Counted from the stretch's first letter, positions 1,556 to 56,811 are shown. The stretch: 64,000 nucleotides of DNA from an uncultured Eubacteriales bacterium (GCA_900319275.1 ONNS01000001.1:19448-83447), one strand, 5' to 3'. Notes: generated by a model not told the origin, from the letters alone. Program-made: numbers and translations.

Positions 1556-1573
1556 CCGTGAAAGGCAAGCCAT

Positions 1574-3037: not shown

Positions 3038-3065
3038 AGCTTTCAATAGTATCGGGAGGAATTTG

Positions 3066-3806: not shown

Positions 3807-3827
3807 TATCCCGCAAGAGTTTATACG

Positions 3828-3870: not shown

Positions 3871-3914
3871 GCTTGCAATTTCCCGGAAAGTACGGTATAC
3901 TGCATCAGTAATAT

Positions 3915-4000
3915 GCCGGTGTGATGGAATGGTAGACGTGACGGACTCAAAATCCGTTGGTGGCGACACCGTGTGGGTTCGAGTCCCACCACCGGCACCA
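3915..4000 (+). tRNA. tRNA-Leu (anticodon CAA), class II with long variable arm, encoded CCA
   Basis: Acceptor GCCGGTG/CACCGGC, anticodon stem ACGGA/TCCGT with loop CTCAAAA, T-arm GTGGG-TTCGAGT-CCCAC, long variable arm, terminal CCA. Confidence 0.93.
3975..4000 (+). repeat. attL core (gggttcgagtcccaccaccggcacca)
   Basis: Identical 26-mer recurs at 55125..55150; here it forms the T-arm/acceptor 3' end of the intact tRNA. Confidence 0.9.
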
Positions 4001-5171: not shown

Positions 5172-5411
5172 ATGAACGAATCCTATACCATCAGATGCAC
5201 CTGCCACACCTACGTCACCCTCGAATGGAATGACAAATTCATTGCCTGCTATGACAACGATATGCAGTACATGGAGGAGATCATCGAGAAGATTGAAAAG
5301 CGAACCGGTCAGAAATTCAACACGATCCAGCGTAAAGGCAGCATCCAGAACTTTGACGGTCTCCGTTTTCTCCACGGCGGATTCAAAAAAGGCACCGAGA
5401 TTTTCGGATGA
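5172..5411 (+). CDS. hypothetical protein
   Basis: 79-aa ORF, AAGGAGGG RBS upstream, tightly packed in operon. Confidence 0.6.
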   Translation: MNESYTIRCTCHTYVTLEWNDKFIACYDNDMQYMEEIIEKIEKRTGQKFNTIQRKGSIQNFDGLRFLHGGFKKGTEIFG

Positions 5412-11292: not shown

Positions 11293-12446
11293 AACGGGTA
11301 GAGGGAACGATCGACGTCGTGACTGCTGCCCGGCAGCGCCTCACGAATGTGTTTTCCAATGGCGTCCCGGTCTACATGAGCTTTTCCGCAGGCAAAGACA
11401 GCCTGTGCATGGCACATCTGACCTACAGCCTCATCCAGGAGGGGAAGATCGACGCCCAGCAGCTCACGGTGATCTTCATTGACGAGGAGGCCATCTACGA
11501 CAGCATGTATCAGATGGCGATTCGGTGGCGAAAACGGTTCCTCGCCGTCGGCGCTGAATTCCGATGGTATTGCCTGCCGGTGAAGCAATCCAGCATCCTG
11601 AACTACCTGCAGTCCACGGAATCGTGGATTACCTGGGAGCCTGGGAAAGAGGATTGCTGGGTCAGGCAGCCGCCTCCCTTTGCGATCACGCGCAGCCCCT
11701 ATCTCACTTATCCCGGCGAGATGAACTATCAGGAGTTCTGCCAGACGATCTCCCGCGACGGCATCCAGATCGTTGGCCTGCGAGGCTCCGAATCCATCCA
11801 GCGGGCGGCGCTCCTGGCAAAGATTACTCTCGGCAAGGGCGGGATCACCGGGAAGAACTGCCAGTACCCTATCTATGACTGGCGGGATAAAGACATCTGG
11901 CTCTACATCAAGGAGCACAATCTGGACTTCCCGGACGCATACATACATCTGTTTCAGGTCGGAGTGCCAAGGCGGCAGCTCCGGCTTTGCAATTTCTTCG
12001 GCTCCGAGGGTATTGCCGGCCTGCGCTGGATCGCCGAGACAGATCCTCAACTCTGGCAGCAGGTGGAGAAGCGCGAGCCGAACGCCTATCTCACTCTCCT
12101 GTACTGGGACAGTGAGATGTTCAAGCGCCGGACCAGGAAGCGCCGGGAGCTGGAGGGCAGCGCCCCTCTGAAAGACTACAAGGCAGAGTGTAAGAAGATG
12201 CTCTTCACCGAGGCCGACAAGTATTTCAGCATAGCCAGCATGAAAACGGTACATCGGGCATACCGGGCGTTCTACATCCGGAACAGCGCCGTGATGACCA
12301 ATGAGCATTTCCGCATCATGCACGATGCTATCATAGCCGGCGATCCGAAGCTCCGGTCCCTCCGGGCACTCTACACGACGGTCTACAAGGAGTATGCAGA
12401 CCTCAGCCGTGCAACTTCCCTGAAGAAGGGAGGTGAACAGGCATGA
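11283..12446 (+). CDS. PAPS reductase-like protein with C-terminal extension (IbrA-like)
   Basis: 387 aa; PP-loop FSAGKDSLCMAH; large C-terminal domain as in IbrA/DUF3440-type proteins (recollection). Confidence 0.7.
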   Translation: MAVKRVEGTIDVVTAARQRLTNVFSNGVPVYMSFSAGKDSLCMAHLTYSLIQEGKIDAQQLTVIFIDEEAIYDSMYQMAIRWRKRFLAVGAEFRWYCLPVKQSSILNYLQSTESWITWEPGKEDCWVRQPPPFAITRSPYLTYPGEMNYQEFCQTISRDGIQIVGLRGSESIQRAALLAKITLGKGGITGKNCQYPIYDWRDKDIWLYIKEHNLDFPDAYIHLFQVGVPRRQLRLCNFFGSEGIAGLRWIAETDPQLWQQVEKREPNAYLTLLYWDSEMFKRRTRKRRELEGSAPLKDYKAECKKMLFTEADKYFSIASMKTVHRAYRAFYIRNSAVMTNEHFRIMHDAIIAGDPKLRSLRALYTTVYKEYADLSRATSLKKGGEQA

Positions 12447-23220: not shown

Positions 23221-23510
23221 AGCACTTTTTACATTACGCGCAAGCCCGGGAATGGCAAGAGGCTGAGGATAGACTGCGGCACATCTATACGACAGATGCG
23301 CTGAAGCTGATTGCCGAGAACACCTCAAAAACTGTCATTCCCGGCGTCGGTGTGGTGGATATTGGATCAATCCTCGCAAAACGATGGATCGAGCTGGCGC
23401 AGCCGCGAAAAGAGCCGGAGAAGGCGGAGGACACTCGGGATTGCCGAGAAATAGCAGACGATATCTGGAAACGGATGAGAGGTGGCAAGCATGGCGTTCA
23501 GCGTTTTTGA
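23064..23510 (+). other. -1 frame extension of the tail chaperone (gpGT-like programmed frameshift product)
   Basis: Frame -1 relative to 22867..23220 is open from 23064 to TGA 23508-23510, with no ATG/GTG/TTG until about 23352; best slip candidate is CTTTTTA at 23140-23146 (non-canonical). Confidence 0.55.
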
Positions 23511-26445
23511 TCTATTTGCCAAGTTATCCTTAGATTCAAGTGAATATGAAAGAGGGCTTGCCGAGGCAAAGGGTAGCGCCACAAGCGCAGGCAGCGGAAT
23601 TGGAAACGCACTGAAAACAGGCGTTAAAGTGGCCGGCGCCGTGCTTGCGGCCGCTGGTACCGCTGTCGTCGCTTTTGGTAAAACGTCTGTTAATGCCGGT
23701 GTGCAGTTTGACACCGCTATGTCCCAAGTCGCCGCGACCATGGGCAAGACCGTTGAGGAGCTCGTGCAGAGCACAGGGACTGCCGAGACGTCGTTCGGAC
23801 ACTTTGAAGGCAATCTCCGAGATTTTGCACAATTCCTTGGTGCCAATACAGCCTTTTCAGCAACGCAAGCCGCCGAGGCTCTAAACTATATGGCCCTCGC
23901 CGGGTATGACGTGCAGCAGAGCATGGATATGCTGCCGAATGTGCTCTCCCTTGCCGCTGCCGGTAACTTTGACCTTGCCAGAGCCTCGGATATGGTGACC
24001 GACGCTCAAACAGCGTTTGGCATCAATGCGGGGCGCACAACGCAGATGGTCGATGAGATGGCGAAAGCGGCATCGACTGGCAATACGTCAGTTGAACAAC
24101 TCGGTGATGCTTTCCTCGTGGTCGGCGGTCTTGCGCAAGAGCTGAACGGCGGTCTTGTTACCTTGGCAAATGGAACCACAACTTCAGTTGATGGACTGCA
24201 GGAACTCGAGATTGCATTGACAGCCATGGCAAACGCTGGCGTGAAAGGCAGCGAAGCCGGCACGCACATGCGGAACATGCTGCTGAAACTGTCCTCACCG
24301 ACAAAGGAAGGACGGGAAGCGTTTGAGGCGCTCGGCGTGTCTGTCTTTGATGCCAACGGGGAAATGAAATCCCTTGAGGAAATCTTCGGGGATTTGAATA
24401 GAGCCATGTCCACCCTCACGCAGGAGGAAAAGATACAGGCTATTTCCGACATCTTCAATGTCCGCGATGTTGCTTCTGCCGAAGCGCTGCTCAATGCGGT
24501 GGGCCAGGACTGGAACAAGATCGGCGCAGCAATCCTTGACGCGCAAGGCGCGGCCGCACAGATGGCGGCAACACAGCTTGACAACCTTGCCGGCGATATG
24601 ACCCTGTTTCAGTCAGCGCTTGAAGGAGCAAAGATCGCAATATCCGACAGCCTGACACCTACGCTGCGTAACTTTGTTAAGTTTGGCACGTCAGCCGTTT
24701 CTGAGCTCGGAACAGCGTTCAAAGAGGACGGGCTACAGGGCGCCTTGAATGCTCTTGGCCCTGTCATCAATCAGGGCGTCGAGCTTATCTTCTCGGCACT
24801 TCCGAATGTCTTGAACGCCGCGACGAGTTTGCTGACTTCTTTTGGCTCTGCCATAATCCAGAACCTCCCGAAACTTATCCCTGCTGGCATTCAGATCGTT
24901 ACAACGCTTGTGGCGTCACTCGTTTCCGGCTTCCCAGAATTGCTGTCGTCAGCAACTCAAATAATCAAGCAGATCTCGGATGGAATCATGCAGGTTCTTC
25001 CGCAGCTCATACCGGCTGCAATTCAGATTATATCCACTCTTGGGCAGGGGATTATGACGATGCTCCCGGAACTCGCAACATCAGCGATTGACATGATCTC
25101 TACGCTGACCAAAGGGATCCAGGAAAATCTCCCGCAGCTTATCCCGGCAGCAATGAACGCTATCATGCAATTCTCAGGTTCGCTGCGCGAGAACTTCGGG
25201 AATATTGTGGACGCCGGCTTGCAGCTGATTATGACGTTGGCTGACGCTTTGATTCAGAATTTGCCGGTCTTCATCGAGACTGTTCCGACCATCGTTTCCA
25301 ATATTGCCGGACTAATAAACGACAACGCGCCGAAGCTACTTGAAAGCGGCATCCAGCTGATCATTCAGCTTGTTGCCGGAATTGTCCAGGCGGTCCCGAC
25401 GCTTATCGCGGAATTTCCCAAGATCATTCGAGCCATTTTCGACGTGATCACTGCGGTCAACTGGATCAATCTCGGCGGAACTATCATCACCGGAATAAAA
25501 AACGGCATTTCCGGACTGGCAAAAAGTGTGCCGGAAACGCTTAAAAAAATCGGCGAAGAGGCACGAGATTGGCTTAAGGCAATCGACTGGAAAACTCTCG
25601 GCGCTGACATTATCGACCTGATCAAAATAGGAGTGCAGTCGCTTATCAATGTGATTCCGAACCTTCTGAAAAGCATTGGAGCGACAGCAGTGAAACTGTT
25701 TAAGGAAATCGATTGGCTCGATCTCGGCATCAATGTTATCAATGGCATTGTCGCGGGGCTGAACGGCATTTCTAACTTCCTGTGGGAGGCTATCAAGGCA
25801 ATAGGGCAGGGGATTATAGATGGATTCAAGGGCATCCTTGGAATCCATAGCCCCTCTACCGTTATGGCAGAACTCGGCAAATATCTAATCCTCGGCTTTA
25901 TAAACGGCATCAGCGAAAAAGTCGGTGCAATAACTGAGCAGATCAAAAACCTGACCGGATCGATCAGCAATATTTTCAGCAACCTCGGCAGTAGTGCTGC
26001 ACAATGGGGCCGCGATCTGATCGGGAATTTTGTCGACGGCCTGAACCAGAAGCTGCAAAACCTGAAAGACAAAGCCGTCGGTATCGCACAGCAGATCAAA
26101 GATGTTATCGGCTTCTCGGAACCGAAAGAAGGCCCGTTGTCGAATTTCCACACCTATGCGCCGGATATGATGGAACTGTTTGCAAAGGGCATTCGGGACA
26201 ATGAGAACCTCATTACGGACGCAATCAGCAGCAGTTTCAACTTGCACGACCAGATCGGCGCGAGTTTCAACGGCGGGCGCGTGGTCAGCAGTGGAGCGCC
26301 GCGCAGCATTTCCGGCAGCAACGGCAACACGACCGTTATTTTGCAGGTTGACCGCACTGAGCTTGGCCGCGTGGTTTTCCAGCTCAACGATGAGGAGACG
26401 CAGCGCGTTGGCGTCCGTCTCGCTACGGGAGGAGCTTACGCATGA
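23482..26445 (+). CDS. tail tape measure protein
   Basis: 987 aa, Ala/Leu-rich helical repeats (LPQLIPAAIQII-type repeats); GTG 23482 or ATG 23491 start. Confidence 0.88.
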   Translation: MASMAFSVFDLFAKLSLDSSEYERGLAEAKGSATSAGSGIGNALKTGVKVAGAVLAAAGTAVVAFGKTSVNAGVQFDTAMSQVAATMGKTVEELVQSTGTAETSFGHFEGNLRDFAQFLGANTAFSATQAAEALNYMALAGYDVQQSMDMLPNVLSLAAAGNFDLARASDMVTDAQTAFGINAGRTTQMVDEMAKAASTGNTSVEQLGDAFLVVGGLAQELNGGLVTLANGTTTSVDGLQELEIALTAMANAGVKGSEAGTHMRNMLLKLSSPTKEGREAFEALGVSVFDANGEMKSLEEIFGDLNRAMSTLTQEEKIQAISDIFNVRDVASAEALLNAVGQDWNKIGAAILDAQGAAAQMAATQLDNLAGDMTLFQSALEGAKIAISDSLTPTLRNFVKFGTSAVSELGTAFKEDGLQGALNALGPVINQGVELIFSALPNVLNAATSLLTSFGSAIIQNLPKLIPAGIQIVTTLVASLVSGFPELLSSATQIIKQISDGIMQVLPQLIPAAIQIISTLGQGIMTMLPELATSAIDMISTLTKGIQENLPQLIPAAMNAIMQFSGSLRENFGNIVDAGLQLIMTLADALIQNLPVFIETVPTIVSNIAGLINDNAPKLLESGIQLIIQLVAGIVQAVPTLIAEFPKIIRAIFDVITAVNWINLGGTIITGIKNGISGLAKSVPETLKKIGEEARDWLKAIDWKTLGADIIDLIKIGVQSLINVIPNLLKSIGATAVKLFKEIDWLDLGINVINGIVAGLNGISNFLWEAIKAIGQGIIDGFKGILGIHSPSTVMAELGKYLILGFINGISEKVGAITEQIKNLTGSISNIFSNLGSSAAQWGRDLIGNFVDGLNQKLQNLKDKAVGIAQQIKDVIGFSEPKEGPLSNFHTYAPDMMELFAKGIRDNENLITDAISSSFNLHDQIGASFNGGRVVSSGAPRSISGSNGNTTVILQVDRTELGRVVFQLNDEETQRVGVRLATGGAYA

Positions 26446-31227: not shown

Positions 31228-32214
31228 ATGAACGCACCTCAACATGAAACAATTGATCAGGTCATCGGTCGCGTCAGAGGGCAGGACGGCGTTTCGCCCT
31301 CCATAACAGTCACGGACATTGATGGCGGGCACAGAATCACCATAATCGATGCGGCACATCCCAGCGGCCAAACAGTCGATGTGATGGATGGCACCGATGG
31401 GACAAGCCCAACGATCACAGTGACCGCTATCACCGGAGGTTACCGCATCACGATCACTGACGTCCAGCATCCCGAGGGACAATCCGTTGACATTCTGCAC
31501 GGGGCCAAGGGCGACAAGGGGGATAAAGGAGATACCGGCAACGGCATCGACCATATTGCCCTGACGAGTAGCGCTGGTGTTGTTGACACCTATACGGTGT
31601 ACTACACCAACGGCGACACATGGACCTATACAGTGGCAAATTCCTCCGAGTCGAGTGCTGATCGAATCATTTACCGAGAAGAAGATCCTCACCCGTCCGG
31701 CTATCTCGGCAACGCTGTCAACGATCTGCAGACGGCTCTTGCGCTTATCATCACCTGGATTACTCAAACAGAGGCAGACTGGGGCGATAGAATCAGCAGC
31801 CTCGAATCTTCGAGGACTACCGACGAGGGAAGAATCTCGACCCTGGAAAGCACGGCAACCAGCCATGGAACGCGCTTGACCACAGCAGAAGGGAAGATCG
31901 TTTCCCTGGAGGGCAGAGCAACCACCGCCGAGGGGAATATCACGAAGCTCATGTCCCGGACAGAGATCGAGGCCGGCAGCGTAACACTGACGAACTCGCA
32001 GGCTTTCCCATTCAATGACAGTCAGGTGACGGTTCCGCTGGTGACGGAGCGGGCAAGTCAGAATTACATAGTGGACTATGAGGTGACGGCTGCCGTCGGC
32101 AACGTGGGAGACATTATCGTGTCGGCCAAGTTGGTCAATGGCTTCAAGTTGGAGTATACGGGGTCGGCATCGTCCGTCACTGTGAAATATCAGGTATTTG
32201 GAGGTATGGCGTAA
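31228..32214 (+). CDS. tail fibre protein with short collagen-like stretch and internal tandem repeat
   Basis: TAGGAGG RBS then ATG 31228; GAKGDKGDKGDTGNG; two ~31-aa repeats (SPSITVTDIDGGHRITIIDAAHPSGQTVDV / SPTITVTAITGGYRITITDVQHPEGQSVDI). Confidence 0.65.
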   Translation: MNAPQHETIDQVIGRVRGQDGVSPSITVTDIDGGHRITIIDAAHPSGQTVDVMDGTDGTSPTITVTAITGGYRITITDVQHPEGQSVDILHGAKGDKGDKGDTGNGIDHIALTSSAGVVDTYTVYYTNGDTWTYTVANSSESSADRIIYREEDPHPSGYLGNAVNDLQTALALIITWITQTEADWGDRISSLESSRTTDEGRISTLESTATSHGTRLTTAEGKIVSLEGRATTAEGNITKLMSRTEIEAGSVTLTNSQAFPFNDSQVTVPLVTERASQNYIVDYEVTAAVGNVGDIIVSAKLVNGFKLEYTGSASSVTVKYQVFGGMA

Positions 32215-32577
32215 ATGATCATCGTGCATAAGAATGAGGGGCCGAAGATCCCCTATAGCGTCCGGAACAAGAAGATCACCTTTGACGATGACCTGACAAT
32301 TAACCTGGTCAAGCGCGAGCGGGACGATCCCGTTCATATCGACGTATGCGCGGACAGAGATGGGGAGCTGGTGATCGGCGCAGCCGCAGGGCGGCGCTAT
32401 GTGGCCGAGATCGACATCCCGGCCAGACAGTACGAACAGCCGGAAACCGTAGTGATCGGCGCGGATGTCGAACTCGGAGATCCTGGAGAGGAAGAGGGCG
32501 GGGGAGAGGCCCCTGTCCCTGTGCCCCTGGACATGGACACTGTCACGCTTAGCCTGTGGGCGATTGAGGAGGAATGA
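32215..32577 (+). CDS. hypothetical tail-fibre-associated protein
   Basis: 120-aa ORF abutting flanking genes. Confidence 0.5.
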   Translation: MIIVHKNEGPKIPYSVRNKKITFDDDLTINLVKRERDDPVHIDVCADRDGELVIGAAAGRRYVAEIDIPARQYEQPETVVIGADVELGDPGEEEGGGEAPVPVPLDMDTVTLSLWAIEEE

Positions 32578-32580: not shown

Positions 32581-33663
32581 ATGGCAAACAACAACTTTGA
32601 CCTGACCAACCTGGCGCTGCAGTGCATTTGCCCCAACAATGAGCTTTTGTATGACGATGTGGGCAAGCCGTCGGTGATGGTGAAGATTCCCAAGATGACC
32701 TATGCTCAGCTCGGCCTCGGAACCTCCACCGAAATCTTCCCGGCATTTAAGGTGGATGATGTGGAGAAAGACGCGATCTGGATCTCGAAATATCAGAACA
32801 TCGTGCAGAATAGCAGAGCGTATTCCCTGCCCGCCCGGGATCCGCGCGCCTCGATCACCTTCGATCAGGCGATATCGGCCTGTACGGCCAAGGGTGCTGG
32901 ATGGCATCTGATGACCAAAACGGAATGGGCGCTGCTGGCTTGGTGGTGCAAGCAGAACGGAACTATGCCCTATGGCAACAACGACTACGGCAAAGATACG
33001 CGAGAATCTGTCTACCGGGCCATCCCGTCTATGGCCCGTGACAGCAGCAATCGCATCCAGCGTGTCGCTACCGGTACCGGCCCTCTGACATGGAGCCATG
33101 ACCGGACGCCCTCTGGCATCTGGGATTTGAACGGCAATGTGTGGGAATGGACCGGCGGTGTGCGGATGGTGTACGGCGAGATTCAGCTTCTTGCGAACAA
33201 CAACGCCGCGAACAAGGATCACTCCCAGGCGGCCAACTCCGCGCTTTGGATGGCGATCAATGCAGCCGACGGCAGTCTCATTGCCCCGGACGGCAGAGGC
33301 ACGACCGAGGGCTCTGTGAAGATGGATTTCGTCAACAGCCACGTCCAGTATTCCACTACGATCACCAGCAAGTCCGATAGCGGGCGCGGATGCCCGTGGA
33401 ATGCTGTGAGCTGCGACAGTACAATCAGCGATGCGGCCAGACTTGTACTGGCTTCGATCGGGCTCTGCCGTTATGATCTGAGTGTCACTGACTTTGATAG
33501 TGATTACTTCTATTTCAACAACGGCGCCGCCGACCGTTGTTGGTTATGCGGCGGCGCCTGGAACAACGGCACGGACGCCGGTGTGTTCTACTCGTACGGC
33601 AACAGCTCCCGCGGCCACTCGAGCGCGTCCATCGGCTTCCGCTCCGCTTATTATGTACCCTGA
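32581..33663 (+). CDS. DGR target protein: FGE-sulfatase / C-type-lectin-fold receptor-binding protein carrying the VR
   Basis: 360 aa; GWHLMTKTEWALLAWW and DLNGNVWEWTGG motifs; C-terminal 39 codons correspond to the TR with A-specific differences. Confidence 0.88.
   Translation: MANNNFDLTNLALQCICPNNELLYDDVGKPSVMVKIPKMTYAQLGLGTSTEIFPAFKVDDVEKDAIWISKYQNIVQNSRAYSLPARDPRASITFDQAISACTAKGAGWHLMTKTEWALLAWWCKQNGTMPYGNNDYGKDTRESVYRAIPSMARDSSNRIQRVATGTGPLTWSHDRTPSGIWDLNGNVWEWTGGVRMVYGEIQLLANNNAANKDHSQAANSALWMAINAADGSLIAPDGRGTTEGSVKMDFVNSHVQYSTTITSKSDSGRGCPWNAVSCDSTISDAARLVLASIGLCRYDLSVTDFDSDYFYFNNGAADRCWLCGGAWNNGTDAGVFYSYGNSSRGHSSASIGFRSAYYVP
33531..33648 (+). repeat. DGR variable region (VR)
   Basis: 118-bp gapless alignment to 34220..34337; 107 identities; all 11 mismatches lie opposite TR adenines. 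Confidence 0.92.
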
Positions 33664-33687
33664 GTACTGACCCACTGTGTGCTGTTT

Positions 33688-33707
33688 TGCTCCGCGGTAG
33701 CGGAGCA
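33688..33707 (+). promoter_or_regulatory. hairpin downstream of VR (8-bp GC-rich stem, GGTA loop), candidate DGR target-recognition element
   Basis: tgctccgc-ggta-gcggagca, 25 nt after the target stop codon. Confidence 0.55.
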
Positions 33708-33717
33708 TCGCGATTTC

Positions 33718-33745
33718 TTCGCCCGAAGGGCGAAAAAAATTTTTA
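33718..33745 (+). terminator. rho-independent terminator
   Basis: ttcgccc-gaa-gggcgaa followed by aaaaattttt (possibly bidirectional). Confidence 0.65.
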
Positions 33746-33840
33746 TGAAAATTACGGTATTCCGTAATAAAATTCCATTTTGCTCTTCCCTCCGCTCAGC
33801 AGTGGTAGAATTGCCACACTTGGACGGAGGAAAGAGCAAA

Positions 33841-34215
33841 ATGGGAGAGATCAGCGAAACAAAAGAATTTCTGCTGCTTCAAAGAATCCTTGACATGATG
33901 GAATATGGCTATGTGTGTCTCCGGCAATTCCCTAAGTCCGAGAAGTACGCTCTGGCAACGGATATCAAGCGATGCATGGATGAAATGGTGTCGCTTGCGA
34001 TTACAGCTCAGAAACGATACTACAAAAAGACCACTTTGCAGGATCTGGACATAGAGATTATGAAGCTCCGTATCTATATCCGGTTGGCGTATAGGCTACG
34101 ATTTCTTCCAATGGAGAAGTACGAGAACTGGTCAGCTATGGTGGTCGAAATCGGTAAAATGCTCGGCGGCTGGATCAAGACCGTCAATGAACGGGCCGCA
34201 AAGCAGAGGGAATAG
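33841..34215 (+). CDS. avd: DGR accessory variability determinant (four-helix-bundle Avd)
   Basis: GGAGGAAAG RBS then ATG 33841; 124 aa; FPKSEKYALATDIKR motif of the Avd / 23S-IVS four-helix-bundle family; TR starts 4 nt after its stop. Confidence 0.82.
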   Translation: MGEISETKEFLLLQRILDMMEYGYVCLRQFPKSEKYALATDIKRCMDEMVSLAITAQKRYYKKTTLQDLDIEIMKLRIYIRLAYRLRFLPMEKYENWSAMVVEIGKMLGGWIKTVNERAAKQRE

Positions 34216-34219
34216 TCCA

Positions 34220-34337
34220 CGAACGTTGTTGGTTATGCGGCGGCAACTGGAACAACGGCACGAACGCCGGTGTGTTCTACTCGAACGGCAACAACTCCCG
34301 CGGCAACTCGAACACGAACATCGGCTTCCGCTCCGCT
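34220..34337 (+). repeat. DGR template repeat (TR)
   Basis: 27 adenines, many as AAC codons in the VR reading frame; 11 differ in the VR, no non-A differences. Confidence 0.92.
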
Positions 34338-34512
34338 CATGCCCAAAAGTCTCATGTTGCAGGCTCAAGGGCCTGCAATCAGTACCGGGCATAAGGGGAC
34401 TATCCCCGGGGTTATATCGTAGCCCAAAAACATTCTCTTCGGTAATCCGACGTTCCGGCGGTGTCCAAAGCCGCACGGCGTCTGATAGGCCGGGGATAAG
34501 AGGAGTGGCAGA

Positions 34513-35631
34513 ATGGAAAAATACTCTCATGTTTTCGAAGAGTTTGACACTTTCGAGAATATGTATGACGGCTATCTGTTGGCGCGCAAATCCAAGCGCG
34601 AGCGCCCGGAGGTATTACGCTATTCTGCCAACCTTGAAGAAAATATCATCAACGATGTGAACCGCCTGTACTGGCAGACATATACCCCCGGAGAACTGCG
34701 GCCATTCTACGAGTATTTTCCGAAGCTCAGACTGATTCACTCTCAACAATTCGGCGATCGGGTGGTCAACTGCGCAGCATATAACGTCCTTTGGCCGATC
34801 TATTCCAAGTCTTTCTATGAACACAGTTACGGGAGCATCCCCGGAGGCGGTCAAATCAATGCAGTTAATACCCTGCAGCAGTGGATGAAAATGCTGGACG
34901 GAAAGCAAGAGCGGTGGTACATAGGCAAGCTCGATATAGCAAAGTTCTTTTTCCGCATTCCTATTGAAGTTCAGATGCGAGAACTGCTGCGGCCTCTGGA
35001 CGATCCCCGTATGGCATGGTTCCTCAATGTGGCGATCCGCTGCGACGGCCGGCCATTTGGCTTGCCACTCCATTGCACCGACGTCACTACCGCCGAAAGA
35101 ATCTGCGGCCGAGGGATGCAGGTCGGCAGCCTGATCTCCCAGACAACGGCCAATGTGGTGCTGACACCGCTCGACCATTACATCAAGCGCGTTATGCGCA
35201 TCCCGTACTATATCCGGTACATGGACGACATGATGATTCTTTTGCCGGGGAAAGACGAGTGCTGGGAGGCGATCGCAGAGATAGATGATTTCATGCAGGA
35301 ACACCTTGGGCTTCAGTTGAACAAAAAGACTGCTGTAATGCCTGTCGGTACCGGCGTGGAATTCATTGGGCGCATGGTGTGGCCGGGGCGAACGACGCTG
35401 AGAAAAAGCACCAGCCTAAATATGAAGCGGCATCTCCGGTTTGTCATGGAGCACTACAGTACCGGCGAGTTGCCCCTGGAATACTGCGAAAGCGTGATCA
35501 CCAGCTATCTTGGGCTAATGAGTCATTGTGACTGTGAGGATCTGAGAAACAAAACCTTAGAAGACTTCGTCCTTGTCCGACGACATTTCGGAGAGGACGA
35601 GGAAATTATCGAAGAAGATCAGTTCATGTGA
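34513..35631 (+). CDS. DGR reverse transcriptase
   Basis: 372 aa; YIRYMDDMMIL (YxDD) catalytic box and QVGSLISQTTANV motif characteristic of DGR RTs; AGAGGAG RBS. Confidence 0.9.
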   Translation: MEKYSHVFEEFDTFENMYDGYLLARKSKRERPEVLRYSANLEENIINDVNRLYWQTYTPGELRPFYEYFPKLRLIHSQQFGDRVVNCAAYNVLWPIYSKSFYEHSYGSIPGGGQINAVNTLQQWMKMLDGKQERWYIGKLDIAKFFFRIPIEVQMRELLRPLDDPRMAWFLNVAIRCDGRPFGLPLHCTDVTTAERICGRGMQVGSLISQTTANVVLTPLDHYIKRVMRIPYYIRYMDDMMILLPGKDECWEAIAEIDDFMQEHLGLQLNKKTAVMPVGTGVEFIGRMVWPGRTTLRKSTSLNMKRHLRFVMEHYSTGELPLEYCESVITSYLGLMSHCDCEDLRNKTLEDFVLVRRHFGEDEEIIEEDQFM

Positions 35632-35757: not shown

Positions 35758-36483
35758 ATGAACACGATAGAAAATGCGGTACAGTGGGCAATCGACATTG
35801 CCAACAATAATTCGCACGGCTACAGCCAGGCCAACCGCTGGGGGCCGGACTATGACTGCTCGTCGCTGGTAATTTCGGCGTGGCAGCAGGCGGGCGTGCC
35901 GGTGCGCAGCGCCGGCGCGAGCTATACGGGCAATATGAAGACGGCGTTCCTCGCCTGCGGTTTTGCCGACGTGAGCGGCAGCGTGAACCTGACGACCGGT
36001 GACGGCCTTCAGCGCGGCGACGTGCTGCTGAACGAGCGCAATCACACTGCGATGTGCATCGGCGGTGGCCGTATCGTTCACGCACGCAGCAGTGAGGGGA
36101 ATTCTATACAGGGCGATCAGAGCGGCAATGAGATCCGCGTGCAGCCGTATTACGTCTATTCGAGCGGCTGGGATTGTGTGCTTCGGTACACGGGCGAGCC
36201 CGCGCCGGCCGAACCGGAGCGCGAACTTTTTGCCGTGGTTGTGCAGCTCCCGGAACTGCGGTGCGGTGACACGGGCTATTACGTGCAGGAGATGCAGTCG
36301 CAGCTTGTCTTGCACGGGTGCAGCCCCGAAAACACCATCCGGCGTGACGGCACTTGCGACGGCAAATTTGGAGACGGCACAGAGACCGCGCTGAGGCGAT
36401 TCCAGGCGATGCGCGGTCTGCCAACGACTGGCGTGTGCGACGGGCAGTGCTGGGCCGCGCTTATTAACAAATCGGAGGTATAA
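35758..36483 (+). CDS. endolysin: NlpC/P60-like peptidase with PG_binding_1-like domain
   Basis: 241 aa; DYDCSS / NHTAM catalytic-type motifs; C-terminal DGKFGDGTETALRRFQ; followed by holins. Confidence 0.85.
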   Translation: MNTIENAVQWAIDIANNNSHGYSQANRWGPDYDCSSLVISAWQQAGVPVRSAGASYTGNMKTAFLACGFADVSGSVNLTTGDGLQRGDVLLNERNHTAMCIGGGRIVHARSSEGNSIQGDQSGNEIRVQPYYVYSSGWDCVLRYTGEPAPAEPERELFAVVVQLPELRCGDTGYYVQEMQSQLVLHGCSPENTIRRDGTCDGKFGDGTETALRRFQAMRGLPTTGVCDGQCWAALINKSEV

Positions 36484-37005: not shown

Positions 37006-37374
37006 ATGAGCCAGTACATCAACCAGATTCTGCTTGTCCTGTTCCTTGCTTTCGCCGCCTTCCTCGGAACCCAGGCCAAGCGCCTGTACCAGCAGTTTGT
37101 CACCACGAAGGTGAAACAGGACATTTGCAAGACGGCCGTGCGCTTTGTCGAGCAGGTCTATAAAGATTTTCACGGCCATGAGAAGCTGAAAATGGCCATG
37201 CTGAAAGCCTCGGAGCTGCTGGCCGAGTACGGCATCACCATCTCAGATGTCGAGTTGATTGCCATGCTCGAAGCCGCGGTCAATGAATTCAACAATAGCT
37301 TCAGCAAAACGCAAGCAGACGACAGTCTTGAAATTGGTGCCGATTACGAAACAGAAATGGAGAGAGCAAAATGA
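37006..37374 (+). CDS. LL-H-type holin-like protein
   Basis: 122 aa, single N-terminal TM ([14 protein letters not shown]) then helical domain as in LL-H family holins. Confidence 0.6.
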
Positions 37375-37748
37375 GCGAACAGAAGATTTCAACTATTCAG
37401 ACGCGCAACAACCTGAATGCTGTGTACCGTGATGGTGAGCCCGGCCCCGGCGGTGCATACCACGAGTATGATGTCTATGCGGCAAACGATGATCCTGAGA
37501 ACGGGAATCCCATCTGTGTGATCCAGTTCCAGAAAGGCCCGCGCGATGATCCCAGCTCGCAGCACGGTGTCCTCGACGGCGACTTGCTGGAGATGGTGCG
37601 CGACCGGCTGCGCGCATTCCAGTCCGGTCCGTATGCCTGCCGGGAGAACGCCTGCGCGCTGACCCACATCGAGGAGGCTCTGATGTGGATGAACAGACGT
37701 GCTGAGGATCGCGCTGAACGCTGCGTCCTCGGTACCTACAACAAGTAA
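37371..37748 (+). CDS. conserved hypothetical phage protein
   Basis: 125-aa ORF, ATGA overlap; last gene of the plus-strand operon. Confidence 0.6.
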
Positions 37749-41261: not shown

Positions 41262-42674
41262 TTAATTGCCCTCCTTCTTGTAGAACAGATTGTGCGTACC
41301 GCCGCGCAGCTCCACTTCCTCGGTGCTGCTGACATAGCCAAGACTACCCAGGAGGCGGTAAACCATATCCAGGTCGGGGTCTTCGCTGTAGACGATATGC
41401 CACTGGCTTTCCTCGGCGTCCCATGTTTCACGCCAGTATTTACCCGTGTCGAGGATCCACATTGCGGTAATCAGCGCCGTCCGCTCCGGATGCTGCATTT
41501 TGGCAGAAAGGAACTCCGCGTAATCCAGTTTTTTGGGGCCGCTGCCTTCCTGCATTTTTACACCGAGCATAGCAGCCAGCTCCGTGATGCTCGCATTGTT
41601 GGAATAACCACCGCCGTTCTGCTTCGCGTCGATCATGGCCTCTGTGACGAACTCCAATACGTTCACGTCACGCTTCTGGTACTGATTGAAGTTTTTGACA
41701 AAATCAAGGCGAAGTTTTCTGTGCCGCTCGGTCATTTCTGTGAACTGCCCTTTGAGTTTCTGATAGGCATCCGCACGAATTTTGTCCTCGATTTGCTTTC
41801 GCTCCGCCTCGGGATTTCGCTTCCACTTTTTGTAGAGGGTGATTTCCGTTTCTTTCTGTACGAAGAAATACTCCTCGGCGCCGTCGTCCTCAGGCTTGAT
41901 GGCGTCCTTGCCCTTGTCTCCATATTTGCTATAGTTGGTGACATACTCTACAGGGAAAGTCCGATCACCGATAAATCCGGTTTTCTGGCTGCCCTGCCAT
42001 TCAACCTTGTCAATCTTTGTGGCAAAGGCAGAAACCTGTCCGGCCCATTTGTCGAGCAGAGCCTTGGTCTTCTGATTTTCAATTGCGGCTGAGAGGGCGT
42101 TTTTCCAGTCCTTTGTTCCCAGTTTCCCAAGCAGATCGTCTTTGACGGCCGGATCGTCGATCTTGTCCATCTCGGCAAAATCGAAGAGGGTAGCACCGCG
42201 CTCCACGGCCTTCTTGAATTTCTTCTCGTCCAGTTCGGCGAGCTTTACGCGGCGCCTGACGGTGGCCTCGGAGAAGCCGGACATTGCCGATACATCCTGT
42301 ATCGTTTTTCCGAGATCCAGCATCATCTGGAAGCCCTTGGCCTCCTCATAGATGGACAGGTCAGACCGCTGCATATTCTCTACAAGCATGGTGGCAATCT
42401 GGTCCTCATAGCTCATGTCCACGATGGTGCAGGGCAGTTCTGTGAGCCCGGCCAGCTTCGCCGCACTTGCCCGCCGGTGGCCAATCAGGATGGTATACAG
42501 GCCGTCCATCACACGCTTATGCACCTTCGAGTAATAGGGAACGACCGTCAGATTTTGAAGGACGCCTTTGGCCTTGATGCTCTCTGCCAGCTCGGACAGA
42601 TCGCCGAGCTCTTTTCTGGGATTGTCCGGGTGAGGATTGAGTTTATCAATCGGGATCATCACAATGTCGGCCAT
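41262..42674 (-). CDS. ParB/Srx N-terminal-domain protein with large C-terminal domain
   Basis: 470 aa; IPIDKLNPHPDNPRKELGDLSELAESIKAKGVLQNL, ILIGHRRASAAKLAG, HTH region QDVSAMSGFSEATVRRRV. Confidence 0.8.
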   Translation of the reverse strand: MADIVMIPIDKLNPHPDNPRKELGDLSELAESIKAKGVLQNLTVVPYYSKVHKRVMDGLYTILIGHRRASAAKLAGLTELPCTIVDMSYEDQIATMLVENMQRSDLSIYEEAKGFQMMLDLGKTIQDVSAMSGFSEATVRRRVKLAELDEKKFKKAVERGATLFDFAEMDKIDDPAVKDDLLGKLGTKDWKNALSAAIENQKTKALLDKWAGQVSAFATKIDKVEWQGSQKTGFIGDRTFPVEYVTNYSKYGDKGKDAIKPEDDGAEEYFFVQKETEITLYKKWKRNPEAERKQIEDKIRADAYQKLKGQFTEMTERHRKLRLDFVKNFNQYQKRDVNVLEFVTEAMIDAKQNGGGYSNNASITELAAMLGVKMQEGSGPKKLDYAEFLSAKMQHPERTALITAMWILDTGKYWRETWDAEESQWHIVYSEDPDLDMVYRLLGSLGYVSSTEEVELRGGTHNLFYKKEGN

Positions 42675-53885: not shown

Positions 53886-54059
53886 GTGCTTCCGTTTGAT
53901 CTATCCAAGTATTCAGATACGGCTCGACATGACCTATGTATGTCTTTTTACCGGGAGTTGGAACGCCTGATGGCCATTCCAGAGGAACGGGAGATTATTG
54001 AGCTAATGACCGCCGAGCGGTTGGCTCGGCAAAAGGAGCAGTCTCGTGAAAGTACCTGA
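53886..54059 (+). CDS. possible 57-aa protein overlapping the integrase start (excisionase role not supported)
   Basis: GTG start, weak RBS; open frame to TGA 54057-54059; no HTH recognised. Confidence 0.25.
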   Translation: MLPFDLSKYSDTARHDLCMSFYRELERLMAIPEEREIIELMTAERLARQKEQSREST

Positions 54060-55065
54060 GCCACGGAAAATGACATCTGGGAACTGGTTTATTCAGCTCC
54101 GCCTCGGCGGCCAAAGCATTCCTGTCACGGCTGCGACGAAAAAGGAGTGCATCCGGCAGGCTGAGCTTATCAAGGCAGAACACCGAACGGGGAAGCGGAC
54201 GGAGATCAAGAAAGAATCGGAGCTCACGCTGGGAGAGGCGCTGGATCGATATATCAATACATATTCCAAAACGCTTTCCCCATCCACGATCCGCGGGTAC
54301 AAGATGTATCGGAAGGCTCGTTTCCTCGCATACCAGGACAAGCGACTGGACACCATCAACTGGCAACGTATGATCGACGACGAGCTGGCGTCCAAGAGCG
54401 AGAAGACGGTCAAAAACGGATGGGGCCTTGTCCATGCAGCTCTGGACCACATAGGCTATCCGATCCCGAAGATAAAGCTTGCCAAAGCGCCGGTCAACGA
54501 GATCGCTTTTCTGCAGCCGGAGGAGATTAAGCCATTCTGCGCTGCTGTCAAAGGCCGGAGCTATGAGATCGCGGCCTTGTTAGAGCTTCACGGCTTGCGT
54601 CTATCTGAAGTACGCGGCCTGAAATGGGAGAACATCGACACGGAGAGGGAGATAATCACCATCCGGGGCGCAATGGTGCGGGGCATGGACGGACAGACGC
54701 TGAAGAAGACGAATAAAAACGAGGCGTCTTCCCGTGATGTGCCAATCCTTATTCCGCAGCTCAAGGAAGCTCTGGAAGCAGTCGAGGACAAAATCGGCTT
54801 TGTAGTGAAGATATACCCGAACACTCTTCTGGACGATGTAAAACGGGCGTGCAAGCGTGCCAGGGTAACAGAGGTAACAAACCACGGCCTGCGCCATTCG
54901 TTTGCGAGTCTCTGCTACTTTCTCGGTATCCCCGAGCGCCAGACCATGAAATGGGGCGGGTGGAGCGACTACACGACCATGCACAAGATATATATCCGTC
55001 TTGCAGCAGTGGCAGAGACCGAGGCAAAGCAAAAGATGGTTTCTTTTTTTGAAAGTGCTAACTAA
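54046..55065 (+). CDS. int: tyrosine-type site-specific integrase
   Basis: 339 aa; AAGGAG RBS 7 nt before GTG 54046; HGLRLSE, HGLRHSFAS and TMHKIYIRL catalytic-region motifs; about 60 bp from attR. Confidence 0.9.
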   Translation: MKVPEPRKMTSGNWFIQLRLGGQSIPVTAATKKECIRQAELIKAEHRTGKRTEIKKESELTLGEALDRYINTYSKTLSPSTIRGYKMYRKARFLAYQDKRLDTINWQRMIDDELASKSEKTVKNGWGLVHAALDHIGYPIPKIKLAKAPVNEIAFLQPEEIKPFCAAVKGRSYEIAALLELHGLRLSEVRGLKWENIDTEREIITIRGAMVRGMDGQTLKKTNKNEASSRDVPILIPQLKEALEAVEDKIGFVVKIYPNTLLDDVKRACKRARVTEVTNHGLRHSFASLCYFLGIPERQTMKWGGWSDYTTMHKIYIRLAAVAETEAKQKMVSFFESAN

Positions 55066-55124: not shown

Positions 55125-55150
55125 GGGTTCGAGTCCCACCACCGGCACCA
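55125..55150 (+). repeat. attR core (displaced original tRNA-Leu 3' end)
   Basis: 26/26 identity with 3975..4000; followed by a native-looking tRNA terminator. Confidence 0.9.
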
Positions 55151-55716: not shown

Positions 55717-56811
55717 TTACAGCTTTTTCTTATTATAATGTAATTCCTCAATGTCATATACATCAACTGATATACATTGAAATAATTCTGGATTGAATAT
55801 TGCTAAATTGAAGCCGCCTGGGTTTGTCGTACTATTATACTCAATGCCATCATATTCTGGAGCCCCGTCGTGTTCAATGCTCTTTATGAAATCGACGATA
55901 TACTGGGTTGGAATATAATCTAAAGTGCTATCACTTCTGCGGAGAGGACGACTCATTTCAAAGTTTAGCTTTTCTAAGTACTGCTTGTTAATAGCGTGGT
56001 CAATAAAATCCAAACCTTCAATAAAAGGACTAATTGTATTTAACGCTTTTAAGTCCACAATAGTGATGTCTCGTTTTAGCTGGAATGTTCCAACGGTTAC
56101 GTAATCAAAGACACCCGCGCGAACCTCGTGCAAAGTTGTATCAATGTCATTAGCCACATATAGGCATGTGATGCCTCGTGCATTTGCACGTCCTTCTGAA
56201 CTTTTCCCAGCTGGAGGTGCCGACATTTCTGCTACAGGGAAGCCCCGGCTATCTGAGATTCTAGCACGGTAAAAACAATCACCGGTTTTATACTTCTTTC
56301 GAATAAACGAGCAATACTTTTCTAAGATGCCAAAGTTTACCAATTTGGAATGATACCTGTTTTTAGTCTTTATTTCGTCTACAAATTCCTCCCAACTACT
56401 ATTCTTGAGAAGGGCGTGATCACGCAAATAGGACGAGTCGTGAAGCTCAGGAATACCAATCAAGTCATCAAATAATGCCGGTGCAGTAGAGTATAAATCA
56501 TGACAGATTGCAGTAATGATTTCATATTGAGATGCACGAGATATGCCTGAAAAAACACTCCATCGATCATTGAGTTCATCAATAAGTGTGCGTCGTTCAG
56601 CTACTGGATAGTAGTCAGGCAATGAAGAGGTTGGAGAATAAACACTTATTAAATCCTCAAAATATGGCGTCAAATCATTTTGCAAAGCAGTATCATAAAG
56701 AAATACGTCATCGCTGCCACAAACAGGGCATTTCCCTTTTGTTCCACCAGAAACAGCTCCAATAATTGAGGATATTTCTCTATCTTTAAAACAATGATCA
56801 CAGAAAATCAT
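55717..56811 (-). CDS. zinc-ribbon N-terminal domain plus RES-domain protein (putative NAD-targeting effector)
   Basis: ATG 56811 in an ATGA overlap with the upstream stop; 364 aa; CDHC...CPVCG; RES triad context GRANARG / LHEVRAG / EYNSTTNPGGFNLAIF. Confidence 0.78.
   Translation of the reverse strand: MIFCDHCFKDREISSIIGAVSGGTKGKCPVCGSDDVFLYDTALQNDLTPYFEDLISVYSPTSSLPDYYPVAERRTLIDELNDRWSVFSGISRASQYEIITAICHDLYSTAPALFDDLIGIPELHDSSYLRDHALLKNSSWEEFVDEIKTKNRYHSKLVNFGILEKYCSFIRKKYKTGDCFYRARISDSRGFPVAEMSAPPAGKSSEGRANARGITCLYVANDIDTTLHEVRAGVFDYVTVGTFQLKRDITIVDLKALNTISPFIEGLDFIDHAINKQYLEKLNFEMSRPLRRSDSTLDYIPTQYIVDFIKSIEHDGAPEYDGIEYNSTTNPGGFNLAIFNPELFQCISVDVYDIEELHYNKKKL

Follow-up and report, generated by a model that had tools for sequence, protein, structure and literature searches.

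A complete and apparently active diversity-generating retroelement on a probable temperate phage of an uncultured gut Clostridia bacterium

Results

Gene order and prophage setting

The window, which is the whole stretch of 64,000 nucleotides analysed here, carries on its plus strand a cassette in the order target gene, avd, template repeat (TR), structured spacer of 175 nt and reverse transcriptase (RT), in which every ORF is intact. An earlier note on this DNA had described a complete diversity-generating retroelement (DGR) at this place, and the presence of all the parts it named bears this out. The target gene (32581..33663) encodes a TaqVP-like variable protein of 360 aa and is preceded directly by g120 (32215..32577, plus strand), a conserved ORF of 120 aa whose product may serve the variable protein as an adaptor or partner. 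This small gene accompanies the target-avd-TR-RT cassette in 19 of 25 distant loci and in the four close relatives L026-L029, while other tail genes do not travel with the cassette.

Identical 26-bp att repeats at a tRNA-Leu (3975-4000 and 55125-55150), one of them beside an integrase gene (54046-55065), support the prophage location that had been proposed. Upstream of the cassette are genes for TerL, portal, major capsid, major tail and tape-measure proteins, and a collagen-like, coiled-coil ORF of the fibre type (31228-32214) lies two genes 5' of the target. The target gene follows the tape-measure and fibre-like genes and precedes those for endolysin and holins on the late-gene strand, at the end of the tail-fibre block where the earlier note had placed it. 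A nucleotide search of 50,697 records of deposited phages returned no match, and in a protein search with the RT the closest deposited phages were BalMu-1 (39.9%), Saumur (38.5%) and Lagaffe (35.2%), all below 40% identity. The lineage is so far known solely from metagenomes and MAGs, mostly from ruminant and other animal-gut samples.

The repeat pair

The variable repeat (VR, 33531..33648, plus strand, 118 nt) lies at the 3' end of the target ORF and in its reading frame, spanning codons 318-356 of 360. The TR (34220..34337, plus strand) is non-coding, being situated between the avd stop and the RT start and having no long ORF in the VR frame, in which it holds 10 AAC codons. Realignment placed the two repeats against each other without gaps over 118 nt at an offset of 689, with 11 mismatches, each an A in the TR and a non-A in the VR; these take up 11 of the 27 TR adenines, and non-A differences number 0. 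The probability that 11 random mismatches would all fall on 27 A sites among 118 is 1.4e-8. Homology stops at 33649/34338 (T versus C) and, when A-to-N changes are tolerated, gains one base leftward (33530 C / 34219 A), which gives 119 nt and 12 A-mismatches. The avd stop ends at 34215 and is separated from the TR by 4 nt (34216-34219). The coordinates and gapless alignment of the repeats, the adenine-only mismatches, the 4-nt distance from avd and the AAC-rich frame had all been read in the same way before, and each stood up to this reanalysis. An A-tolerant scan of both strands of the 64-kb window with the TR and its 40-nt pieces found no second or remote VR besides the known one.

The target protein

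The target matches the Pfam FGE-sulfatase family (E 1e-6) and, by phmmer, the Thermus variable protein TaqVP (PDB 5vf4; E 8.6e-47, 30% identity). Its AF2 model (pLDDT 88, pTM 0.91) retrieved 5vf4 first in Foldseek (TM 0.87/0.82, E 2.5e-35), with PvdO, Mtd and TvpA next in rank, and the VR aligns with that of TaqVP (query 317-357 to TaqVP 343-383). The C-type-lectin fold suggested in the earlier note can be specified as the FGE subtype, and on the predicted model the target is confidently assigned to the TaqVP-type FGE/C-type-lectin fold, the C-terminal segment of which holds the variable residues. In an alignment of 75 homologues the 12 columns of highest entropy are exactly the A-templated codons, all inside the VR, and they are flanked by the invariant scaffold residues G324, G334, F336, G352, R354 and A356. 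The protein also belongs to PHROG 2889 (E 5e-121), a family without annotated function, and its domain fold recurs in BFVD viral models annotated as tail-collar proteins or tail fibres (Foldseek). No virion-attachment domain was recognised in the target, and its N-terminus, as read from the sequence, has no signal peptide.

Avd and the reverse transcriptase

The accessory variability determinant avd (33841..34215, plus strand, 124 aa) matches Pfam bAvd (PF22296, E 2.5e-32) over 104 of its 124 residues. The DGR RT (34513..35631, plus strand, 372 aa) matches RVT_1 (E 3e-20), and its best match among solved structures is the Bordetella bRT 8ub7 (E 2.8e-25, over residues 3-315), which ranks above retron-type and group II intron RTs among its PDB matches. 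The YMDD box and LISQ motif that had been noticed lie at residues 236-239 and, as SLISQ, at 206-210; the longer VGSLISQ also ends at 210. The box aligns to bRT D215/D216 and the (V)GxxxSQ motif to bRT I181-Q187, while K28, F65, R73, I75 and D141 align to bRT K29, F66, R74, I76 and D138. The enzyme falls within the DGR clade by its YxDD box and by [LIV]GxxxSQ in place of the QGxxxSP of group II introns. A truncated or inactive RT would have spoken against the earlier interpretation; the protein is full length, with the catalytic residues present.

DNA elements between VR and avd

The VR ends in a GC-rich, adenine-free, IMH-like segment (TCGGCTTCCGCTCCGCT, 33632..33648, plus strand), read directly from the sequence, whose 17 nt are identical to TR 34321-34337. 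VR and TR diverge only past it, and the last mutated VR site in any allele is 33629. The usual description of a DGR has an IMH at the VR 3' end and an IMH* of different sequence at the TR 3' end, but identity of the two is reported for some DGRs (PMC5758913). With the segment the same in both repeats, discrimination between donor and target must rest on the downstream sequence and on a hairpin located there. This putative target-recognition hairpin or cruciform (33688..33707, plus strand), with an 8-bp GC-rich stem (TGCTCCGC/GCGGAGCA) and the 4-nt loop GGTA, lies 39 nt past the VR end and has no equivalent downstream of the TR. It occurs at the same relative position in most of 22 related loci, where the stems differ with compensatory changes and the loops read GGTA, GATA, GGCA or GAAA. 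The published consensus is a GC stem of 7-10 bp with a GRNA loop, 4-34 nt beyond the VR (PMC3240598); the hairpin fits this stem and loop, its distance of 39 nt being slightly outside the published range.

Further downstream, a terminator scan identified an intrinsic-terminator-like stem-loop (TTCGCCC-GAA-GGGCGAA, then an A/T run; 33718..33744, plus strand) that would close the target transcription unit, and related loci have an equivalent second hairpin with a T run. It is followed by a conserved palindrome (ATTACGG-TATT-CCGTAAT, 33751..33768, assigned to neither strand), a candidate operator upstream of the putative avd promoter. In the form TWACG-N5-CGTWA it is found in 17 loci, mostly as one copy each and about 75-100 nt 5' of avd where the position was compared, against a chance expectation of 0.06 per 64 kb. 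The N6 variant has a single exact match in the window, at the site itself, which rules out an operator shared across the phage.

The avd gene is led by an inverted repeat with arms of 31 nt (33775..33844, plus strand), found by repeat detection and RNA folding (-43.8 kcal/mol, z = -8.25). Its right arm contains the avd RBS (GGAGG) and ATG, and its loop an extended -10-like box (TGGTAGAAT, 33803-33811). Equivalent avd-leader hairpins of different sequence were present in 8 of 12 lineages tested (z -3.1 to -8.9).

RNA structure around the TR

Alignment folding predicted a long-range duplex that brackets the TR, its 5' strand (AGGGAAUAGUCC, 34207..34218, plus strand) overlapping the avd stop codon and its 3' strand (34397-34408) lying within the spacer. 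Across 17 loci its 12 pairs are paired in 95.6% of cells, and 8 of them have changed on both sides. The duplex matches in position the cPRT Stop duplex of the Bordetella DGR RNP (bioRxiv 10.1101/2023.10.23.563531). The spacer (Sp) RNA between TR and RT (34338..34512, plus strand, 175 nt) further contains on the same strand a stem-loop just 3' of the TR (34357-34378), which is a candidate for Avd binding, a helix (34409-34413 paired with 34421-34425) and a 3' domain (34446-34460 paired with 34472-34485). Over all 42 pairs of the DGR RNA in the 17 loci, 91.4% of cells are paired versus 33-44% when the partners are slid, 31 of the 42 pairs have changed on both sides, and 0 of 500 shuffles reached any of the observed measures. 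Judged from these sequence comparisons, purifying or compensatory selection acts on the cis elements, both RNA and DNA. Rfam offered no family for the DGR RNA, its matches in the window being one tRNA and one hammerhead ribozyme only.

A further helix closing the 3' end of the TR (CATGCC with GGGCAT) is visible by eye in several loci and was excluded from the formal covariation test owing to inconsistent alignment columns. A local GGGG/CCCC hairpin, which appeared in an alignment of the spacer only, was dropped, as the long-range duplex wins when upstream sequence is included.

Natural alleles and related loci

The evidence for activity consists of three VR alleles in the closest group, compared between contigs. 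The identical Avd protein was found in 11 contigs from other samples, and the TR is identical in L027, L028 and L029. The VR of L028 has 14 differences, all at TR-A sites (P about 4e-11), amounting to a divergence of 11.9% versus 1.5% in the remainder of the target gene. In L026 the TR carries ACG>GGC at 34314-34316 and the same 3-nt change occurs in its own VR, the remaining 13 VR differences being all at A sites. Compared each with its own TR, the three alleles differ at adenines only, at 11, 11 and 13 positions. Pooled over the alleles, mutations touch 20 of the 27 TR adenines. Between cassettes that are 95.5-98.5% identical and share the same Avd, the VRs differ at 14-16 of 118 positions versus 0.8-1.5% in the adjacent target CDS. 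The expectation that VR polymorphism would be confined to TR-adenine positions is thus borne out in alleles from other samples.

Since the TR is the same in L028 while the VR differs, and since the TR substitution of L026 is mirrored in its own VR, unidirectional transfer from TR to VR with A-to-N mutagenesis apparently is active in nature, as far as can be told by comparing alleles. The VR allele of the window is also that of L027 and L029, contigs from at least two other samples, which means either that turnover is not rapid or that those samples are related. Among more distant relatives with upstream sequence included (RT 64-85% identical), 21 of 22 possess their own A-only VR/TR pair. Wider searches added few close copies: an exact search of metagenome and viral contigs for the VR 3' junction gave 0 matches, the 90% cluster of the target has 3 members only, and a metagenome scan for the TR-spacer junction returned only L002-type copies with the same VR, plus one contig without a VR.

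Discussion

A BPP-1-type retroelement and its likely mode of action

Taken together, the locus very probably represents a complete DGR of the BPP-1 type, residing on a temperate tailed phage of about 51 kb integrated at a tRNA-Leu gene of a gut bacterium of the Clostridia (probably Oscillospiraceae). By homology with the Bordetella system, from which the biochemical steps of retrohoming are transferred here, a dedicated promoter 5' of avd would drive a transcript of avd, TR, spacer and RT, in which the RNA around the TR, with its 12-bp bracketing duplex and spacer stem-loops, would assemble with Avd and RT. The RT would then make a cDNA of the TR that is faithful except opposite adenines, where any nucleotide could be inserted. 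This cDNA would take the place of the VR, in the final part of the target gene, and leave the TR unchanged; the GC-rich VR 3' end and, downstream of it, the GC-rich GGTA-loop hairpin would presumably guide homing. In this manner about 15 codons, of which 10 are AAC and which would map to one face of the TaqVP-like C-type-lectin domain, could be re-randomised to yield up to about 1e15 protein variants by our own arithmetic. Synteny and the fold resemblance to fibre tips suggest that the target is a virion tail protein, and by analogy with BPP-1 its diversification would switch receptor specificity.

The Bordetella BPP-1 element (mtd-avd-TR-brt) shares the order of target, avd, TR, spacer and RT, an Avd of the bAvd family, and an RT that is the closest match of the present one among solved structures, with catalytic and adenine-mutagenesis-related residues aligned. 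Likewise common to both are a VR located C-terminally in an FGE-subtype CLec domain, a GC-rich GRNA-tetraloop hairpin past the VR, the TR-bracketing duplex and the stem-loop just 3' of the TR. The element described here differs in that its target, of the TaqVP type, has a single domain and 360 aa, its IMH-like segment is identical in VR and TR, its hairpin stands 39 nt from the VR and not immediately after it, and its host is a Gram-positive anaerobe. A conserved ORF of 120 aa before the target and a long inverted repeat in the avd leader also set it apart. In the Thermus aquaticus prophage DGR (TaqVP, PDB 5VF4) the target is a clear homologue and the element is equally prophage-borne with the same cassette order (PMC6328139), whereas the host there is a thermophile of the Deinococcota instead of a mesophilic gut Clostridia bacterium and the target here is 21 residues shorter. 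DGRs of phages of Faecalibacterium and other gut Clostridia (among them Lagaffe, Mushu, Roos, Pioen and Lelie, and Clostridium phage Saumur) are on temperate phages of the same broad hosts and adjoin tail genes, and for two of these phages read-level activity has been demonstrated (PMC11792537); the RT here is only 35-40% identical to those of the closest deposited phages. Chromosomal DGRs such as those of Treponema denticola TvpA and Legionella LdtA also direct adenine-specific diversification to a C-terminal CLec surface, but act on bacterial surface lipoproteins and not on phage genes, and the fold match of TvpA (2y3c) to the target is weak (E 0.07, TM 0.35-0.44).

Alternative explanations

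The most substantial alternative accepts a functional DGR but denies that the variable protein decides which host receptor is used. The protein might instead recognise a different ligand, for example mucus or dietary glycans or a co-receptor, or be a non-virion protein produced late in infection, in which case diversification would tune something besides tropism. TaqVP, the closest structural relative, is monomeric and has no known ligand (PMC6328139), and a lack of annotated function in PHROG 2889, of a recognised virion-attachment domain and of an informative fold match for the partner g120 would agree with such a role. In addition, conservation of the cassette does not extend to the tail genes upstream, from which it follows that the module moves between tail architectures. 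Against this stand the position of the target on the late-gene strand, with fibre-like genes on one side and the lysis cassette on the other, the recurrence of its domain fold in viral models of annotated tail-collar and tail-fibre proteins, the absence of a signal peptide, and a DGR survey in which viral targets are mostly tail proteins (PMC8144416). On this evidence a non-receptor role is unlikely, and a switch of receptor specificity is the preferred reading.

Two further alternatives concern the activity and the nature of the element itself. The cassette could be a relic in which genes and repeats survive while retrohoming has ceased in the lineage, the A-specific differences stemming from an active ancestor; the VR allele shared by contigs of several samples would be in line with this. 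The near-identical cassettes with VRs that differ at A sites only, far beyond the adjacent CDS, the recent TR mutation of L026 copied into the VR of the same genome, the intact ORFs with their catalytic residues and the selection on the cis RNA and DNA elements all argue for recent activity instead, leaving a relic highly improbable. An ordinary duplication or gene-conversion tract near an unrelated retron-type or group-II-type RT, with a coincidental adenine pattern, has in its favour only the general point that phages often carry RT genes as well as short repeats. This explanation is effectively refuted by the statistics of the A-only pattern (a chance of about 1e-8), by the natural alleles and by the related loci, 21 of which show the pattern independently. 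It would moreover have to account for an RT with the DGR-specific GxxxSQ motif and bRT as best match, for the presence of Avd, and for a non-coding TR that templates an in-frame VR through AAC-rich codons, and its probability is negligible.

Significance and a possible regulated module

Gut phages are rich in DGRs built in this way, which the literature describes well (PMC8144416, PMC11792537), and the element, a clean and apparently active case of a familiar type of system, leaves the current understanding of DGRs unchanged. With it, an uncultured lineage of gut Clostridia prophages gains a well-documented DGR that is apparently active, its natural alleles showing both turnover at A sites and the passage of a new TR mutation into the VR. 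The covariation independently supports the RNA architecture seen by cryo-EM in Bordetella as conserved in phages of Bacillota. As a compact single-domain scaffold with about 15 variable codons, the TaqVP-like target could be of interest for the engineering of phage host range or for protein display.

Only g120, the promoter palindrome and the RBS-covering inverted repeat might lead to anything new. A tentative and rather doubtful reading is that the element forms a regulated module of five parts, not the classical four, in which g120 always goes with the variable protein and avd-TR-RT has its own control region. Perhaps g120 docks the monomeric TaqVP-like head onto unrelated tail architectures. 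The control region would consist of the DGR-specific palindrome (33751-33768) and the extended -10 box inside the loop of the inverted repeat, whose 31-bp arms would hide the avd RBS only in read-through transcripts of the late operon. Production of Avd, and with it mutagenesis, would in that case proceed independently of late-gene expression. For g120 itself no Pfam match was found, its PHROG match (8734) is without annotated function and none of its 788 homologues is named. Its AF2 model is beta-rich (pLDDT 81) and gave no significant fold match against the PDB, and a weak resemblance to SPP1 gp22 (TM 0.40, probability 0.15) may be taken as a lead only.

Adenine-specific differences between the repeats

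On all sequence-level criteria applied except the distinction between IMH and IMH*, the element is a diversity-generating retroelement (DGR) whose cassette is of the BPP-1 type and whose target is of the TaqVP type (TaqVP is the protein diversified by a DGR in a Thermus aquaticus prophage). It very probably works by mutagenic retrohoming. A repeat finder and direct comparison independently aligned the variable repeat (VR, 33531-33648) with the template repeat (TR, 34220-34337) without gaps at an offset of 689, matching the extent described in the earlier note. The two copies differ at 11 positions, all of them adenine in TR and another base in VR. Because TR holds 27 adenines in 118 nt, the probability that all 11 mismatches would fall on adenines by chance is 1.4e-8, which bears out the earlier claim of adenine-only mismatches. 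Homology ends abruptly on the right at 33649/34338, and one further base on the left (33530/34219) could be included if A-to-N changes are tolerated, giving 119 nt with 12 A-mismatches. The last base of the avd stop codon is 34215, leaving the 4-nt gap before TR that had been reported. Within the 360-codon target ORF (32581-33663), VR corresponds to codons 318-356. Translated in this frame, TR reads HERCWLCGGNWNNGTNAGVFYSNGNNSRGNSNTNIGFRSA and is, as had been noticed, rich in AAC codons (10 in total); the VR of the window differs from it at nine residues. No further TR copy was found on either strand of the window, even with an A-tolerant search.

Natural VR alleles in other samples

Exact-protein look-up of Avd and the reverse transcriptase (RT) retrieved contigs from other samples that encode Avd or the RT unchanged; samples carrying the phage are SRR33718324, ERR2027900, ERZ27291899, ERZ1029110 and ERR3275109. 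Over the cassette, two of the contigs (L027 and L029) match the window at 100% identity, while two others carry different VR alleles. L028 has an overall identity of 95.5% and an identical TR, and its VR differs from that of the window at 14 positions, all at TR adenines (P about 4e-11); divergence reaches 11.9% in VR versus 1.5% in the 950 nt of the target gene upstream. In L026 (98.5% identity), 13 of 16 VR differences lie at A sites and the other three make up a single codon, at which the TR of L026 has changed from ACG to GGC and its VR likewise carries GGC at the position corresponding to 33625-33627. A new non-A mutation of TR has thus been copied faithfully into the VR of its own genome, which is the hallmark of one-way transfer from TR to VR. 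Compared with their own TRs, the three alleles show adenine-only differences at 11, 11 and 13 sites, so that the expected restriction of VR polymorphism to TR adenines holds in this contig comparison. Altogether 20 of the 27 TR adenines are altered in at least one of the three alleles. The sample of alleles is small, with the 90% cluster of the target containing three members, and further searches gave no additional VR alleles.

The cassette of L028 is also mosaic. Its RT gene (L028 5299-6365 versus window 34513-35579) contains 96 nt differences (~9%), whereas outside this gene the Avd protein and TR are identical and the spacer is nearly so. This pattern suggests recombination within the cassette between related phages.

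Reverse transcriptase and Avd

The avd gene (33841-34215) encodes a bAvd domain (Pfam PF22296, E 2.5e-32) and the RT gene (34513-35631) an RVT_1 domain (Pfam E 3e-20). The YMDD box and LISQ motif previously recognized in the RT were located at residues 236-239 and, as SLISQ, at residues 206-210. Among all solved structures, the top match is the Bordetella phage RT (bRT, 8ub7, E 2.8e-25, residues 3-315), followed by retron-type and group II intron RTs. Residues K28, F65, R73, I75 and D141 align with bRT K29, F66, R74, I76 and D138, the V(G)xxxSQ stretch with bRT I181-Q187, and YMDD with bRT D215/D216; according to the cryo-EM study, these bRT residues contact the template, the incoming nucleotide or the catalytic metal. 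Given the extent of this alignment and the matching key residues, the RT is full length and shows no visible inactivation.

Relatives of the RT at 64-85% identity occur in 15 viral contigs and 10 MAGs. The latter bear the labels Oscillospiraceae, Oscillibacter, Clostridia and Eubacteriales, besides a few others; several were obtained from deer and one from rabbit, and one has a Hadza (human) sample label. In 21 of the 22 loci that extend upstream of the RT, a VR/TR pair of the locus itself is present, with A-only mismatches in long runs. No deposited phage is close to the element, the RT being at most 40% identical to all of them.

DNA and RNA elements of the cassette

The final 17 nt of the repeat are GC-rich, A-free and identical between VR and TR. 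This would place the element in the class of DGRs with identical IMH and IMH* (the 3'-end segments of VR and TR), a class already described (PMC5758913), and discrimination between the two copies would then have to lie downstream. A hairpin, TGCTCCGC-GGTA-GCGGAGCA, lies at 33688-33707, 39 nt after VR, and is followed by a terminator-like hairpin at 33718-33744. Most related loci have a hairpin at the matching relative position, with stems of 7-10 bp that differ in sequence through compensatory changes and with GGTA, GATA, GGCA or GAAA loops. This is the element that BPP-1 requires for efficient retrohoming; its consensus in phage DGRs has a GC-rich stem of 7-10 bp and a 4-nt GRNA loop, and the spacing is flexible (4-34 bp) (PMC3240598).

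For 17 loci, the sequences between the 3' end of avd and the start of the RT gene were aligned and folded. The predicted RNA contains a 12-bp duplex bracketing TR, in which AGGGAAUAGUCC (34207-34218, overlapping the avd stop) pairs with the spacer at 34397-34408, a stem-loop at 34357-34378 beginning 20 nt after TR, a short helix (34409-34413 with 34421-34425) and a 3' domain (34446-34460 with 34472-34485). Across the 17 loci, standard pairs make up 91.4% of cells, a share that drops to 33-44% if partners are shifted by 1-3 columns. Both sides have changed in 31 of the 42 pairs, and no observed pairing measure was reached in any of 500 shuffles. The bracketing duplex is 95.6% paired, with covariation in 8 of its 12 pairs. 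By position, this duplex and the stem-loop match the cPRT Stop duplex and the Avd-binding stem-loop of the Bordetella RNP, which have been predicted in 207 of 278 Avd-containing DGRs (bioRxiv 10.1101/2023.10.23.563531).

Fold and variability of the target

A C-type-lectin fold had been proposed for the target, and structure prediction supports it. The AlphaFold model built on a 75-sequence alignment (pLDDT 88, pTM 0.91) superposes on TaqVP with TM 0.87/0.82 (E 2.5e-35), and further fold matches are PvdO, Mtd variants and, weakly, TvpA. The sequence itself matches TaqVP (PDB 5VF4) with E 8.6e-47, and the two VRs align with each other (query 317-357 to TaqVP 343-383). Residues 72-192 additionally give an FGE-sulfatase Pfam match (E 1e-6). 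The predicted viral structure that matches best is that of a 689-aa phage protein (47% identity); many weaker viral matches are annotated as tail-collar or tail fibres. The target family comprises 3,742 proteins at E <= 1e-10, some with the NCBI names SUMF1/EgtB/PvdO.

In the 75-member alignment, the 12 columns with the highest variability in the entire protein (residues 322, 326, 328, 329, 332, 337, 339, 341, 342, 346, 348 and 350; 2.87-3.32 bits) are all templated by TR codons that contain adenine, and G324, G334, F336, G352, R354 and A356 between them are invariant. Outside VR, variability reaches at most 2.70 bits. According to surveys, viral DGRs mostly target tail proteins whose VR regions have a CLec fold (PMC8144416). 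Variation of receptor recognition or tropism is the probable biological role here, held with less confidence than retrohoming itself. As DGR-bearing prophages of gut Clostridia have also been described, including Faecalibacterium prophages with demonstrated activity (PMC11792537), the DGR is correctly recognized and well supported, yet ordinary for the field. It differs from BPP-1 in target architecture, IMH identity, hairpin distance and an extra conserved ORF.

The avd leader and g120

Across the DGR family, the conserved unit consists of target, avd, TR and RT preceded by g120, a 120-aa ORF (32215-32577, +) directly upstream of the target; conservation does not extend to the other tail genes. 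None of the 788 homologues of g120 is named, and its model is beta-rich (pLDDT 81) with no significant fold match. Possibly, g120 is a fifth component of the cassette.

An inverted repeat with 31-nt arms (33775-33805 and 33814-33844) extends over the RBS and start codon of avd; its RNA fold reaches -43.8 kcal/mol (z = -8.25). Equivalent hairpins of different sequence occur in 8 of 12 lineages tested (z -3.1 to -8.9). When leaders were read by eye, most loci showed a TGnTATAAT-like box 24-32 nt upstream of the avd ATG, placed in the loop wherever the inverted repeat exists. If this box is a promoter, the left arm is missing from the element's own transcript, and the avd RBS would be hidden solely in read-through RNA from the target gene. 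In addition, 17 loci contain a palindrome, TWACG-N5/6-CGTWA, mostly once per locus and, where compared, about 75-100 nt upstream of avd. It lies at 33751-33768 in the window, with a single exact match at 33752-33767 (chance expectation 0.06 per 64 kb), and at 5258-5272 in the related locus L004, with equivalent sites in 16 other loci. The palindrome is a candidate operator, to which a regulator of the DGR operon could bind.

The prophage and its surroundings

Exact 26-bp direct repeats (GGGTTCGAGTCCCACCACCGGCACCA) occur at 3975-4000, the 3' end of a tRNA-Leu(CAA) gene (3915-4000), and at 55125-55150, which adjoins a tyrosine integrase gene (54046-55065). These are the att sites of a prophage of ~51 kb. 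The left host flank (1-4000) has a higher G+C content than the prophage interior, while the G+C scan gave no clear shift at the right junction. On the + strand, genes for the terminase large subunit (13697), portal (14989), head morphogenesis protein (16649), major capsid protein (19604), major tail protein (22030) and a 987-aa tape-measure protein (23482-26445) are followed by several unannotated tail-region ORFs and a 328-aa protein with collagen-like GDKGDKGDTG and coiled-coil repeats (31228-32214). After g120, the target and the DGR come an endolysin, two holins and an Acb2/Tad1-like gene, also on the + strand. Synteny thus supports the earlier placement of the target at the end of the tail-fibre block.

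Several other features of the prophage were recorded. A type II hammerhead ribozyme (RF02276, 6936-7000, +) lies upstream of the packaging genes and matches the full-length model at 45 bits versus a gathering score of 37. The 125-aa gene immediately after the two holins (37371-37748, +; PHROG 2428) carries, in precomputed Pfam matches of identical contigs, Acb2_Tad1_hairpin, a family of anti-CBASS/anti-Thoeris nucleotide sponges. A PAPS-reductase-like gene (11283-12446, +; PHROG 2302, E 8e-81) and a 470-aa ParB-like nuclease or partition protein (41262-42674, -; PHROG 6218, E 2e-69) are present as well. Outside the prophage, a gene for a 396-aa protein with a RES domain, a toxin-type domain, lies about 570 nt past attR (55717-56907, -) in a stretch of low G+C (39-48%). 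Upstream of the tRNA, an endolysin-like gene (ELLD + PG_binding_1; 3063-3806, +) shares 47% identity with the prophage endolysin (35758-36483) and may have been left behind by a phage that occupied this site earlier.
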